From the sequence record PP925839.1: 64,000 bases of DNA, one strand, 5' to 3'. The position numbers and the translations under genes were made by a program. The notes under the pieces were generated by a model that had not been told where the DNA came from, searched no databases, and saw only the letters and a program-made list of their open reading frames with translations. Shown piece after piece: positions 55,320-59,555 of the stretch; the stretch's first letter is position 1, and each line of letters starts with the position of its first letter. Source of the stretch: Escherichia phage PinkRuby.

Positions 55320-55351
55320 ATTGTAACACAACACGAGGGACTTGTAAACTA
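55320..55351 (-). promoter_or_regulatory. early promoter-like stop/start junction (TAG overlapping GTTTAC, N18, TACAAT)
   Basis: alt copy 1 stop TAG shares its G with GTTTAC; AGGA before ATG of 54998..55288. Confidence 0.5.
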
Positions 55352-57406
55352 CATCTTGAACTTTTTAGACATTCCGTTGATGTTAACCAAAGAAGCCAAG
55401 ATTTGAGAAACTTCGTTTTCCTCTTCTTTTGATTCTTCTACAAGGAATTGATTAAACCCAGCCATTGGACGAACTTCACCAGTTTCCATTAGATGATCGC
55501 CATCATATACCGATTCTTCTAATTGTTCAGAAGGAGGAACGATTGTGCCTTCGATTAGATACTTATTATAAGCAGTTTCTTTCATCATGTACGTGCTCAC
55601 TTTATTAATCTTCAGCAAAATTCCACGCGGTAAAATAACTTCAGCTTCTGATGGAAATCCTGATAAATGACCTGGAACGATAACTTTGATTCGCTCAGCC
55701 CCTTTAATTACCATACCTACGCTAGTTTCAGCGTCTTCATTCGCATAAGCAGAGTGACTACCCATATGCATTAAATCTTCAGCATCAACTGAACCTTCTC
55801 CTTCGCCAGAAAATACTGCGCCGGAATCATCTAGAGCCATATAGTTTTTACCATGCTCACCGAAGATATTTGGTTTAAGCGATGTGGATACGAAGTTCTT
55901 GAAATAGAACATTTTATTTTCAATATTATGACGTAAAGTTTTAAAAGTAACTTCTTGTCCACGATAAAGCGTAGTTCCTGGAGGAAGAACTGAACCTTTA
56001 GCGAATGCAGAATCCATTGTCTCGATGTGTTTAATAGCTCGTTCCATGTATTCTTCACGGGTAGAATCTGGTTTACCCAAGAGGAACGAGTTCATTTCAA
56101 CATATGAATCTGCACAATAATCTTCTATTACATCAGACTCAGCCTGAGTTAATCCTTTTGGAGTTACTTCGGTGCTTGCGTATTCATATGCCTGAGCAGC
56201 AGATTCATTAATCAATTTATAAATGCCATTCATAACAAATTGAATAATAGCTACCTTTTCGTCTGGCGTGGCTTTAGAACCTTTAACTAAATCATTGATA
56301 ATTTTCTTAATAACATCAAAGCTATTAGAAATATTAATGTCAGCGAGATCGCTCAAAATTTTATCGGTTTTATAATCAAAAAATTCTTTATTCTTTAAAT
56401 ATTCTTGAGAACCTTGATGTGTTATATCGCTCTGCAGTCTGATAGACGGATCACGTAAACGTGCATGAGCCAATGCAATATGATTTCGGAAGCTTTCTAG
56501 TTCATAATCGTTAGATTTAAAACGAGAAGCACTTCTCATACCACCGATAGCTCCTTTGCTGAAGTTTGAACCAATCTGGATAACGCCAGAGTTCATTGGT
56601 CCTTCTGCTTTATATACCGGAACTTTAGATTCAAACTCTTGATATTTCTTGGCAGCGAAGCTATCACCCTGAAGCGAAGCATCGACAGTAGAATATTGAG
56701 CTTGTGCTGCCAATCGACGACTAATTTTAGTTTTCTGAATAACAGCTTGATCCGTGCGCTTATCATTTTCTAAAGCAATAGAAGCAGCAACAGCAACAGC
56801 TTTAGGAACAGCATTACCTGTTTTAACATCTACATAAACATCACCAACCTTTGATTCAACTTTTGTGAATAACTCAGTTGAAATAGGAGGTACACCTGGA
56901 ATGTCTTCTAAATTGGCATTTTTACGGTAAACCATAATATATGCATACTTTTTATCGTAATCCCAGATTTCCTTTAAAAGAACATATCGACCTGCTCCTT
57001 TAGTACGTACTAAACGGTCAGCAATAACTTGCATTTGACGAGCTGCACCATTTGTTTTACTTTTTAGTACGCGGAATAGGCATGCGTCAATTTTATACTG
57101 TTTCATTGTTTGAAGAGCAGTATCAAAAACCGCATTAATGACACCAATTGGATTTCCACCCAAGTTTTTAAGTTTAACTAATGATAGTTTCTCATTAACA
57201 CCTATCATTACGATATGCATCATTTTATCGCCTGGCTTAACGTTTTTATTTGTATCACCGCCAGAGGTGTATGTACAAAATCTAAATCCAGGAAGCACAC
57301 TTTCTTCACCGGCTTGAATAGCAAAAATTTGAGGTATTTTATGCTTAGGATTTAAGTTAACAACCGGCGCCGAAGCGCCGTCAAATAATTCTGTAATAAG
57401 TTCCAT
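55349..57406 (-). CDS. alt: Alt-like ADP-ribosyltransferase (copy 1)
   Basis: 685 aa; N-terminus MELITELFD; R-S-EXE motifs LYRGQ, FVSTSL, EAEVILPRG. Confidence 0.85.
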   Translation of the reverse strand: MELITELFDGASAPVVNLNPKHKIPQIFAIQAGEESVLPGFRFCTYTSGGDTNKNVKPGDKMMHIVMIGVNEKLSLVKLKNLGGNPIGVINAVFDTALQTMKQYKIDACLFRVLKSKTNGAARQMQVIADRLVRTKGAGRYVLLKEIWDYDKKYAYIMVYRKNANLEDIPGVPPISTELFTKVESKVGDVYVDVKTGNAVPKAVAVAASIALENDKRTDQAVIQKTKISRRLAAQAQYSTVDASLQGDSFAAKKYQEFESKVPVYKAEGPMNSGVIQIGSNFSKGAIGGMRSASRFKSNDYELESFRNHIALAHARLRDPSIRLQSDITHQGSQEYLKNKEFFDYKTDKILSDLADINISNSFDVIKKIINDLVKGSKATPDEKVAIIQFVMNGIYKLINESAAQAYEYASTEVTPKGLTQAESDVIEDYCADSYVEMNSFLLGKPDSTREEYMERAIKHIETMDSAFAKGSVLPPGTTLYRGQEVTFKTLRHNIENKMFYFKNFVSTSLKPNIFGEHGKNYMALDDSGAVFSGEGEGSVDAEDLMHMGSHSAYANEDAETSVGMVIKGAERIKVIVPGHLSGFPSEAEVILPRGILLKINKVSTYMMKETAYNKYLIEGTIVPPSEQLEESVYDGDHLMETGEVRPMAGFNQFLVEESKEEENEVSQILASLVNINGMSKKFKM

Positions 57407-57409
57407 GAT

Positions 57410-59506
57410 TTATCCTTGAACGAACTTGTAAGGCATGTTTGCAATATCTATGCAAGACGCAATAATTCCAAGAGATGATTCTACTTTTTGTTTAACATTT
57501 GATGAAACAAATGATGCAAAGTCAACTCTGTCTTCTATTTCAATATCACCTGTCATTGCAACTACTTCACCAGTTTCCATTAGACGGTCACCGTCATAAA
57601 TTACTGATTCGGTGAGTTCTTCCGTAGTCATAACTTCAGCTTGAATGAGTTTTGTATTATTAGACGTGGTTCCGTCATTATTAGAAGCATCAGTTATTTT
57701 ATTCACTTTGACCATCAATCCGCGCGGTAGAATAACTTCAGCTTCTGTTGCTATTCCGAGACTTCCTGGATATACAACATTAACTTTATGAGCTCCATCA
57801 ATTGCCCATCCTATTTGAACTTTAACGTATTCAGGATTTTCTTTATACGCTCTTATTTCGTTTGGATTAATAGTTATTCCTTCTTCATTTTTATCAACTG
57901 TCAATTCATTACGAGCTTCTGGTTCTAAAAGACCAATACCAGCATGTGTAATTCCAAAACGTCCAAAAATGATAGGAGTTAAAGAAGTAGATACAAAATT
58001 TCTGAAATAGAACACTTTATTTTTAACTAGTGCTTCGTATATAGGAGCAGTCATACTTTGAGCACGATAAACTGTGATGCCTTCCGGTATGCGGTCACCA
58101 TTTTCAAAAGCTGAATCTAAGTTATTTATAGCAGATTCAATTTCTTTTTCACTCATTACATCATATCGTTCTGGATTGTAACGACCTAAAAGAAGATTAT
58201 TGATGTCAGTATATCCTGAACCGCAATATTCTCTAATGCCACGCTTTTGTGATGGAGTATATTTAGAACCATCGCGGGCAATAGTAATATCAATCATTGG
58301 ACCGGCACCAATTCCAGAAAAACTGTAAATCATTCGTTTGAGGAATTTAGTTTTTGCTGCGTTCCAGGAATTTTTAGTTATTTCTTCCCAGACTTCATCT
58401 GGTTGTCCTTTACGATTTTTATTATGATTAGTAAGCCATTTATCTTTATAATCTTCAAAGAATTGATTTACAGCTGCTGCGTATTTCTCTAAACATTTTA
58501 TTGAAGTAGTTGGTTCATTTTTAATCGCATTAAGAATTACATCTTTAATCTTTTCAGAAACTTCATTAACCTCACTTTTTGAAAAGAATTTATAGTCATA
58601 ATGAAGTTCATCTGCAGTTCCTTCAGCAATAATTTTTGCTGCCTTAGTTTTAGAAGCTAATGAATTAATTCCAAGCTTCATTTCTTCTGCTTCGGGAATT
58701 AAAGGAGCTGTAGCAGGTTTATTGAAATTAGCTGCGGTAGATTCATACTTCTGGAATAATTCACTTTCAAATCTAGAAGATTCCAATGACTGACTTTGTG
58801 CAATTGCTCTACGGGAAATTTTAACTTTAACGATTACAGCTTGATCAGAACGTTTATCGTTTTCTTGCGCAATAGATGCTGCAATTGCCTCATTTTTAGT
58901 TACTTGAGCTCCGGTATCTTTATTGATATAAACATCGCCGACCTTCGATTCAACTTTAGTAAAGAGCTCGGTACTAATTTCCGGAACTCCTGGAATGTCT
59001 TCTAGTGATACATTTTTGCGATGTATAAGAATATATGCATACTTTTTATCGTAATCCCAGAGTTCCTTAAGAAGGACGTATCTGCCGCCTGAACGGCTGC
59101 GGATAAGTCTATCAGCAATAACTTGAATTTGTCGAGCTTGACCAGCAGTTTTAGACTTAAGAATACGAAGCATACAGGCATCAATTTTATACTGACGCAT
59201 TGTTTGCATTGCAACAGTAAAAACTGAATTGATGTAATTAATTGGGCTTGGACCGAGACCTTTCAATTTAGCAATTGAGCCTTTAGCAGTTAATGTAAAA
59301 GGAACAATATGCATCATTTTATCGCCCATCTTTAAATCGCGATTAGTATCACCTCCAGATGTATAAGTACATAAACGAAAACCTGGTTGTTCAATTGCGT
59401 CATCAACATGAACTGAAAAAATTTGCGGTATTTTCTTCTTTGGATTTAAGTTTGTAATCGGAAGAGTAGTATCTTCGTCAAATAATTCTGTAATGAGTTC
59501 CATCAT
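57410..59506 (-). CDS. Alt-like ADP-ribosyltransferase paralog (copy 2)
   Basis: 698 aa; N-terminal half roughly 60-70 percent identical to copy 1 by eye; R-S-EXE motifs VYRAQ, FVSTSL, EAEVILPRG; TATAAATA on minus strand at 59527-59534 preceded by a hairpin. Confidence 0.8.
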   Translation of the reverse strand: MMELITELFDEDTTLPITNLNPKKKIPQIFSVHVDDAIEQPGFRLCTYTSGGDTNRDLKMGDKMMHIVPFTLTAKGSIAKLKGLGPSPINYINSVFTVAMQTMRQYKIDACMLRILKSKTAGQARQIQVIADRLIRSRSGGRYVLLKELWDYDKKYAYILIHRKNVSLEDIPGVPEISTELFTKVESKVGDVYINKDTGAQVTKNEAIAASIAQENDKRSDQAVIVKVKISRRAIAQSQSLESSRFESELFQKYESTAANFNKPATAPLIPEAEEMKLGINSLASKTKAAKIIAEGTADELHYDYKFFSKSEVNEVSEKIKDVILNAIKNEPTTSIKCLEKYAAAVNQFFEDYKDKWLTNHNKNRKGQPDEVWEEITKNSWNAAKTKFLKRMIYSFSGIGAGPMIDITIARDGSKYTPSQKRGIREYCGSGYTDINNLLLGRYNPERYDVMSEKEIESAINNLDSAFENGDRIPEGITVYRAQSMTAPIYEALVKNKVFYFRNFVSTSLTPIIFGRFGITHAGIGLLEPEARNELTVDKNEEGITINPNEIRAYKENPEYVKVQIGWAIDGAHKVNVVYPGSLGIATEAEVILPRGLMVKVNKITDASNNDGTTSNNTKLIQAEVMTTEELTESVIYDGDRLMETGEVVAMTGDIEIEDRVDFASFVSSNVKQKVESSLGIIASCIDIANMPYKFVQG

Positions 59507-59555
59507 ATCCTCTCTAGTGTTTATTCTATTTATAAAATTAAAGGCCCGAAGGCCT

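Follow-up and report, generated by a model that had tools for sequence, protein, structure and literature searches.

An intact paralog of alt in Escherichia phage PinkRuby and its apparent deletion remnant in phage T4

Introduction

Two adjacent genes for Alt-like ADP-ribosyltransferases (ARTs), here called copies A and B, lie on the minus strand of a 64 000-nucleotide stretch of Escherichia phage PinkRuby DNA (sequence record PP925839.1; this whole stretch is called the window and positions are counted from its first letter). The locus raises the question of what the second copy is and whether it, like Alt, is an enzyme that enters the host cell with the phage DNA. The region was identified as the standard T-even (Tequatrovirus) alt region in its complete form, in which B is a full-length Alt paralog under strong purifying selection; the small alt.-1 and alt.-2 reading frames of phage T4 appear to be what a deletion has left of the same gene. 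It is likely that A and B are both head-packaged, injected, arginine-specific mono-ADP-ribosyltransferases, B probably with different targets.

Alt of T4 (gpAlt, NP_049811) is an NAD+–arginine ADP-ribosyltransferase that is packaged in the phage head: about 40 copies reside in the prohead core, are trimmed by the prohead protease gp21 and are injected together with the DNA. Its main target is Arg265 of the RNA polymerase α subunit; other proteins are modified as well, and Alt itself is non-essential. Within the family, modification of these targets is known for the T4 protein only. In the T4 record alt.-1 and alt.-2 are explained by an old duplication of the beginning of alt. Nolan et al. (2006; PMC1524935) listed these two frames, together with full-length copies from other T4-like phages, as paralogous alt duplications. 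The tandem pair is therefore already known, having been deposited hundreds of times and noted as a duplication in T4-like phages in 2006. The remaining interest is that the model phage T4 lacks an enzyme which, in most of its relatives, appears to enter the cell with the phage.

Sequence, motifs and predicted fold of the two copies

Copies A and B are minus-strand open reading frames at 57410..59506 (698 residues from the first ATG, beginning MMELITELFD) and 55349..57406 (685 residues, beginning MELITELFD), with a gap of 3 bases (57407–57409) between them. A GAGAGG Shine–Dalgarno sequence (59509–59514) is 2 nt from the first ATG of A and 5 nt from the second, and alt is annotated from the second ATG in phages T2, T6, RB14, RB51 and Ge15. 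On account of this spacing and this annotation A is best read as a protein of 697 residues that starts with MELITE at 59503 (57410..59503, minus strand), leaving an extra in-frame ATG at 59504–59506 (minus strand) ahead of it. The original prediction, which was made from the letters of the window, had described adjacent minus-strand genes of 685 and 698 residues separated by 3 nt; the arrangement was borne out and the upstream protein becomes one residue shorter. The end coordinate that it gave for the pair, 59534, belongs to a promoter motif and not to the end of a gene.

The two proteins are 42% identical over 718 columns (E = 4e-163, BLASTP), and direct repeats with a spacing of ~2094–2103 nt mark the tandem duplication at the DNA level. 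Pfam family PF03496 (ADPrib_exo_Tox) matches A and B with E values of 3e-20 and 2e-37 (72.8 and 129 bits, compared with a curated cut-off of 23.4), and phrog_802 (Alt-like RNA polymerase ADP-ribosyltransferase) matches both from end to end (E = 3e-272 for A and 1e-255 for B). Identity to T4 Alt is 72% for A and 41–42% for B; to the alt products of T2, T6, RB14 and RB51, A is 98–99% identical. A is thus the T4 alt ortholog in its T2/T6-type allele: it shares with T4 alt the position, the R-S-EXE residues, the gp21 motifs at both ends, the flanking genes, the hairpin and the late-promoter motif, and differs from it in the overall identity of 72% and in belonging to another allele class.

Both proteins show the same four-part architecture, consisting of an N-terminal domain of ~235 residues, a poorly conserved helical middle region, an R-S-EXE ART domain of the C3/VIP2/iota/Vis type and an acidic C-terminal tail. 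Translation at exact coordinates places the catalytic residues of A at R480 (58064–58066), S505-T-S507 (57983–57991) and E587-A-E589 (57737–57745), and those of B at R482 (55961–55963), S507-T-S509 (55880–55888) and E587-A-E589 (55640–55648). R, S-T-S and E-x-E therefore follow one another in the order of the R-S-E clade of mono-ADP-ribosyltransferases in A and in B alike, and the catalytic arginine, both serines of S-T-S and both glutamates of E-x-E are invariant over 18 A- and B-type sequences. The predicted pattern of N-terminal similarity with divergence further on was confirmed, as were the intact motifs: identity between A and B is 68% in the N-terminal domain, ~19% in the middle region (multiple alignment) and 33% in the ART domain. 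Besides the middle region, the divergence of B from A affects the STS–EXE loop and the stretch immediately preceding EXE.

The AlphaFold2 (AF2) model of A has a predicted local distance difference test score (pLDDT) of 75, and its ART fold matches those of Vis, CDTa and iota Ia; the predicted structure of B also has the ART fold and is confident across the ART core. The R-S-E clade toxins (Vis, C3, VIP2, iota Ia/CDTa and Certhrax) share this predicted catalytic fold and the R, S-T-S and E-x-E residues with the Alt copies, although sequence identity is only 14–26%. The Alt copies differ from them in having a phage-specific N-terminal domain of ~235 residues, a long linker of helices, a variable acidic insertion that separates STS from EXE and a C-terminal tail that can be cleaved off, and in that Alt proteins are delivered from a phage head whereas the toxins are secreted.

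A MuF (SPP1 gp7-like) N-terminal head domain was not found in A or B, and neither Pfam nor structure comparison gave support for reading the N-terminal domain as MuF or as any other known fold. The two proteins thus stand apart from the MuF-fused, head-packaged effector ARTs and polyvalent proteins (Iyer et al., PMC9503650). Searches by sequence for a solved Alt structure returned no match for B and only weak CDTa/iota matches for A, and NCBIfam gave no family for either. Precomputed Pfam annotation places a second family, PF26846, on A- and B-type proteins, where it may represent the N-terminal domain of Alt.

Distribution of copy B and its counterpart in T4

The gene order in the window is gene 30 (ligase), alt.1, alt (copy A), the full-length alt paralog (copy B), alt.-3 and, in convergent orientation, gene 54; in the T4 record it is 30, alt.1, alt, alt.-1, alt.-2, alt.-3 and convergent gene 54. 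Both genes of the pair are transcribed toward gene 54 from between gene 30/alt.1 and alt.-3/gene 54, which is the position of the T4 Alt family, and the single 685-residue gene B occupies the place held in T4 by alt.-1 plus alt.-2. The 4.9 kb around the pair are 98.7% identical to Escherichia phage Ge15; the region matches 543 phage records, and in 341 of these a single uninterrupted match spans ≥80% of it.

A segment of 1.69 kb that is absent from T4 was found, with coverage above 80%, in 401 phage records, T2, T6, RB9, RB14, RB51 and AR1 among them, and B itself was found at ≥90% protein identity in ~401 records (tblastn). It is annotated there as alt.-2 (RB14, RB51), alt.-1 (T2), alt_2 or 'Alt-like RNA polymerase ADP-ribosyltransferase'. 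B of the window is a deposited gene of the T2/T6/RB relatives and one more allele of an uncharacterised kind: it does not differ in substance from its counterparts in T2, T6, RB14, RB51, AR1 and the ~400 Tequatrovirus records, which have it at the same position, with 685 residues and with the same 3-nt gap; its amino-acid identity to six of these counterparts is 97.7–98.8%. The pair had been taken to be unusual among T4-type genomes, and this does not hold, since T2, T6, RB14, RB51, AR1 and ~400 other records carry both genes. The recommended pairwise alignment and comparison with the T4, T2, T6 and RB alt loci confirmed A and B as paralogs that are standard in T2, T6 and the RB phages. The original prediction had also weighed the case that reference genomes hold the same two genes under existing names with known redundancy; the names do exist, but redundancy is not established.

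In T4 the DNA at the place of B is ~97% identical to the first 350 nt of B and ~68% identical to alt. It carries two lesions. One A has been lost from a run of A, so that alt.-1 and alt.-2 read as separate frames, and 1,699 bp (counted between repeat starts) have been deleted, the junction coinciding exactly with a 9-bp direct repeat, CTAAAAAGT. Where B is intact, as in the window, the upstream copy of this repeat is at 57059..57067 (minus strand, B codons ~114–116; the left end of the T4 deletion) and the downstream copy at 55360..55368 (minus strand, B codons ~680–682; the right end). The hypothetical reading frames alt.-1 and alt.-2 of T4, of 61 and 67 residues, match B residues 1–56 and 62–117. 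The protein families phrog_23015 (61 positions) and phrog_15247 (67 positions) map to the same residues of B, and on the strength of these lengths and this mapping they are taken to represent alt.-1 and alt.-2; they fit B (E = 2e-40 and 3e-38) far better than A (E = 1e-21 and 2e-19). The two T4 frames thus read as a deletion remnant of full-length B. An old partial duplication of alt fits less well as their origin, given the identities of ~97% to B and ~68% to alt and the junction at the 9-bp repeat.

The T4-type deletion junction recurs in 91 phage records, of which many are environmental isolates. A laboratory artefact is ruled out, because the junction is shared by all 91 records, among them the environmental phages slur03 and vB_EcoM_112 and Salmonella phage SG1; the loss of B is accordingly a natural polymorphism at a frequency of roughly one in five. 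Roughly four in five Tequatrovirus genomes have B, which is the more uniformly conserved copy of the pair.

In comparisons that cover the window, T2, T6, RB14, RB51, AR1 and PYPS2T, B always has 685 residues and is 97.7–99.6% identical. The ratio of nonsynonymous to synonymous substitution rates (dN/dS) over the window and these six phages is 0.03–0.06, with dS up to 0.28, indicating strong purifying selection. The uninterrupted 685-residue frame and this ratio rule out B as a gene remnant or pseudogene. The single alt gene of Salmonella phage Melville (Gelderlandvirus) is split by a frameshift that its depositors confirmed by Sanger sequencing, an instance of alt decay in nature.

Age and evolution of the pair

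Dhakavirus IME341 carries the same tandem pair at the same place, also 3 nt apart. In neighbour-joining trees the Tequatrovirus A alleles group in one clade (100% bootstrap) with the upstream copy of Dhakavirus and the single copy of Mosigvirus, and B groups in a second clade (97% bootstrap) with the JS10-type downstream copy of Dhakavirus and with relatives. This copy-for-copy orthology places the duplication before the split of Tequatrovirus and Dhakavirus. A recent lineage-specific duplication is ruled out by it, together with the presence of the pair in T2, T6 and the RB phages. The proposal of duplication followed by divergence is therefore upheld as far as A and B are paralogs from a tandem duplication, but T4 is not the single-copy ancestor, since it keeps a remnant of a deleted B. 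The pairs of Dhakavirus phages JS98, JS10 and IME341 resemble that of the window in synteny, in the 3-nt gap and in clade membership, the upstream copy falling with A and the downstream copy with B; they differ in their genus-specific N-terminal domains (42–46% identity) and in B orthologs that are 45–67% identical, depending on the region.

The N-terminal 235 residues of A and B are 67–68% identical within a genus and 42–46% identical to those of either copy in the other genus. Three B-type proteins from metagenome assemblies are identical to A from residue 1 to about residues 50, 180 and 210, respectively, and pure B over the remainder; the stretches identical to A are apparent A-to-B gene-conversion tracts, or the proteins are possibly assembly chimeras. 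Gene conversion between the copies ends at about residue 210–235, and none was seen in the effector half. The pattern suggests either that gene conversion has acted repeatedly and only within the N-terminal domain, or that the two copies have co-adapted to a common capsid core.

Copy A occurs in two allele classes, a T2/T6 type of 697 residues (~320 records, including that of the window) and a T4 type of 682–685 residues (~175 records). They are 72% identical overall: the first 235 residues are identical in the alignment and the DNA is ~95% identical through ~codon 269, and identity is 33% in the middle region and 65% in the ART region. All four combinations of the A allele with the presence or absence of B occur. 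The ART module of A (within 57600–58690, minus strand; middle and ART regions are of the T2/T6 allele) has 95% amino-acid identity to the Dhakavirus upstream copy with a dS of 0.52; for all flanking genes and for the rest of A, by contrast, dS is saturated (>1.3). Some Dhakavirus records show 84–90% DNA identity over the module. The high identity and low dS of the module point to its exchange between the genera later than their split. The analyses of gene conversion and of module exchange used few taxa and simple methods and provide leads only.

Predicted transcription signals and prohead-protease motifs

Ahead of A lies TATAAATA, the T4 late-promoter consensus (59527..59534, minus strand; motif match), 24 nt upstream of the MELITE start codon. 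It is preceded by a G+C-rich, terminator-like hairpin, AAAGGCC-TTCG-GGCCTTT, that overlaps the alt.1 stop codon and is followed by AATTTT (59540..59557, minus strand). A hairpin and a late promoter in front of the upstream copy had been predicted, and the hairpin and the promoter motif are both in place; a terminator is annotated at the same position in Ge15, and the hairpin is absent from the list produced by a simple terminator scan. In the window the motif TATAAATA occurs 24 times compared with 9.1 occurrences expected, a count reached in none of 100 shuffles, and its copies are mostly on the plus strand at 11–45 kb, which fits the late structural gene block.

Scans of the A–B junction found no terminator-like and no late-promoter motif. 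The junction (57407..57425, minus strand) consists of an AAGGA Shine–Dalgarno sequence for B inside the last codons of A, the stop codon TAA, 3 nt (ATC) and the ATG of B. Co-transcription of A and B from the late promoter ahead of A is the simplest reading, because no terminator or late promoter intervenes and the Shine–Dalgarno sequence of B lies inside the end of A; translation of the two genes would then be coupled. A second TATAAATA at 58123–58130 (minus strand), inside A near codon 458, is either a chance occurrence or an internal late promoter for B.

T4 Alt is cleaved after ITE-6 and after LTE-619 to give a product of 68.2 kDa (mass spectrometry; PMC5694885), and this mass was reproduced by calculation from the sequence. 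Judged from sequence, gp21 motifs are present at both termini of A (ITE-6 and LTE-632) and of B (ITE-6 and LEE-631), and in both proteins the conserved tail YDGDxLMETGE follows the C-terminal site. Both protease-site glutamate columns are invariant across the family. The calculated masses of the mature proteins are 70.1 kDa for A and 69.1 kDa for B.

Discussion

The features described above are compatible with the following course of events. Both genes would be transcribed late from TATAAATA ahead of A, and B would be translated from its own Shine–Dalgarno sequence inside the end of A. The two proteins would be built into the prohead core through their shared N-terminal and terminal segments, where gp21 would trim them after ITE-6 and after the L-x-E site at residue 631 or 632, yielding mature products of ~70.1 kDa (A) and ~69.1 kDa (B). 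Both would be injected with the DNA, so that NAD+-dependent mono-ADP-ribosylation of arginines in host proteins would precede the expression of any phage gene. For B, we infer packaging, processing and injection from the features that it has in common with A; its enzymatic activity and a difference in targets between the copies are likewise presumed. The divergence in the middle region, in the STS–EXE loop and in the segment before EXE suggests that B probably has a different or wider set of targets.

Several points weigh against this reading. The proposed difference in target specificity is a reasonable interpretation of sequence divergence. Only three differences between A and B in the ART domain are clade-fixed, in a small sample, and such residues were discarded as pointers to specificity for being too few. 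Literature searches found no direct evidence that B is present in virions, processed, injected or active, and no experimental study of B, an absence that is weak evidence given that older and subscription work was covered only in part; the one paper on the paralog that they turned up was that of Nolan et al. (2006). Directly upstream B has no late-promoter motif of its own, the nearest other TATAAATA being 717 nt upstream, inside A. The AF2 models were built from a shallow alignment of 18 sequences and have predicted template modelling scores (pTM) of 0.56–0.59. The N-terminal domain has no convincing structural match, and its proposed role in packaging comes from conservation. Finally, B is dispensable in some settings, having been lost in T4 and in ~90 other records, and this loss, which extends to environmental isolates, shows that it is not essential.

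In a rival reading B is packaged and active on the same targets as Alt, namely Arg265 of RNA polymerase α and the same minor substrates, and serves as an extra dose or a backup. The identical catalytic motifs, arginine-type EXE and domain order of A and B agree with such a redundant pair, as do the non-essential nature of T4 Alt, the survival of T4 without B and the small number of clade-fixed differences in the ART domain. Yet the copies have been distinct since before the genus split, with identities of 33% in the ART domain and ~19% in the middle region, while each remains under strong purifying selection in its own lineage, and gene conversion never extends into the effector half, which fits selection that keeps two different effector modules; we regard redundancy as unlikely. 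Still less probable is that B is not a virion protein and is made late to act in the infected cell on host or phage proteins, or that it serves head assembly in a way that has nothing to do with injection. Proteomic searches of the literature did not reveal B in virions, B has no promoter motif of its own and the literature found does not define the capsid-targeting determinant of Alt. Against this, the MELITE propeptide is unchanged in B and the C-terminal L-x-E site and the YDGDxLMETGE tail are kept, and gp21 removes both segments from T4 Alt in the prohead; moreover, the N-terminal domain of B co-varies with that of A within each genus, a pattern that docking of both to one genus-specific core would explain. 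That B is decaying or catalytically dead is already largely refuted and deserves hardly any credence: its loss in T4 and 90 other records, and the split Gelderlandvirus alt, do show that alt genes decay, but B is an intact 685-residue frame with a dN/dS of 0.03–0.06 in the window and six phages, R482, S507, S509, E587 and E589 are invariant and the ART core is predicted with confidence throughout.

The preferred reading, two head-delivered enzymes of which the second probably has other targets, can be taken further, though only tentatively and with somewhat less than even expectation. B would then be a second head-delivered enzyme with host targets unlike those of Alt, counter-defence being one possibility, and would have been missed through decades of research on 'alteration' only because the model phage T4 has deleted it. 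As part of the same proposal, Alt proteins would be modular, with a genus-specific N-terminal packaging domain homogenised by gene conversion and effector modules exchangeable from genus to genus.

The alt locus of T4 is a deleted form, and the three ADP-ribosyltransferases that textbooks give for T4 (Alt, ModA and ModB) probably understate what most T-even phages bring into the cell. If B is indeed packaged and has targets of its own, T2 or T6 would be the right phages in which to study the immediate-early takeover of the host. The modular pattern of a shared N-terminal domain and an exchangeable catalytic module also bears on the loading of foreign proteins into T4 heads by means of the terminal segments of Alt.

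Neighbouring genes and other features

Directly after the stop codon of B and ahead of alt.-3 lies a σ70-like promoter, TTTACA-17-TACAAT with an extended −10 TG (55320..55348, minus strand; consensus match only), where T4 has TATAGT in place of TACAAT. It suggests that alt.-3 has early expression as well, which would not depend on the late alt transcript. alt.-3 itself (54998..55288, minus strand; 96 residues, DUF5498) is the last gene of the minus-strand block and has the position of T4 alt.-3. It is not a B-specific partner, since it is kept in T4 and in Mosigvirus, which are without B. In T4, mutations that extend the C-terminus of alt.-3 allow escape from the CmdTAC defence by blocking degradation of CmdA (PMC11618068). 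A bidirectional terminator hairpin (54972..54993) separates alt.-3 from convergent gene 54; it was found by the terminator scan, and a terminator is annotated there in Ge15. A scan of 54500–60000 against Rfam gave no RNA family.

On the other side of the pair, alt.1 (59556..59744, minus strand; 62 residues) lies downstream of the DNA ligase gene 30 and upstream of A, as in T4, and belongs to phrog_1976. It gives a full-length match to Pfam family PF24647, 'Phage blade protein' (E = 6.5e-29). In some records it is labelled 'siderophore-interacting protein', which looks like an annotation error.

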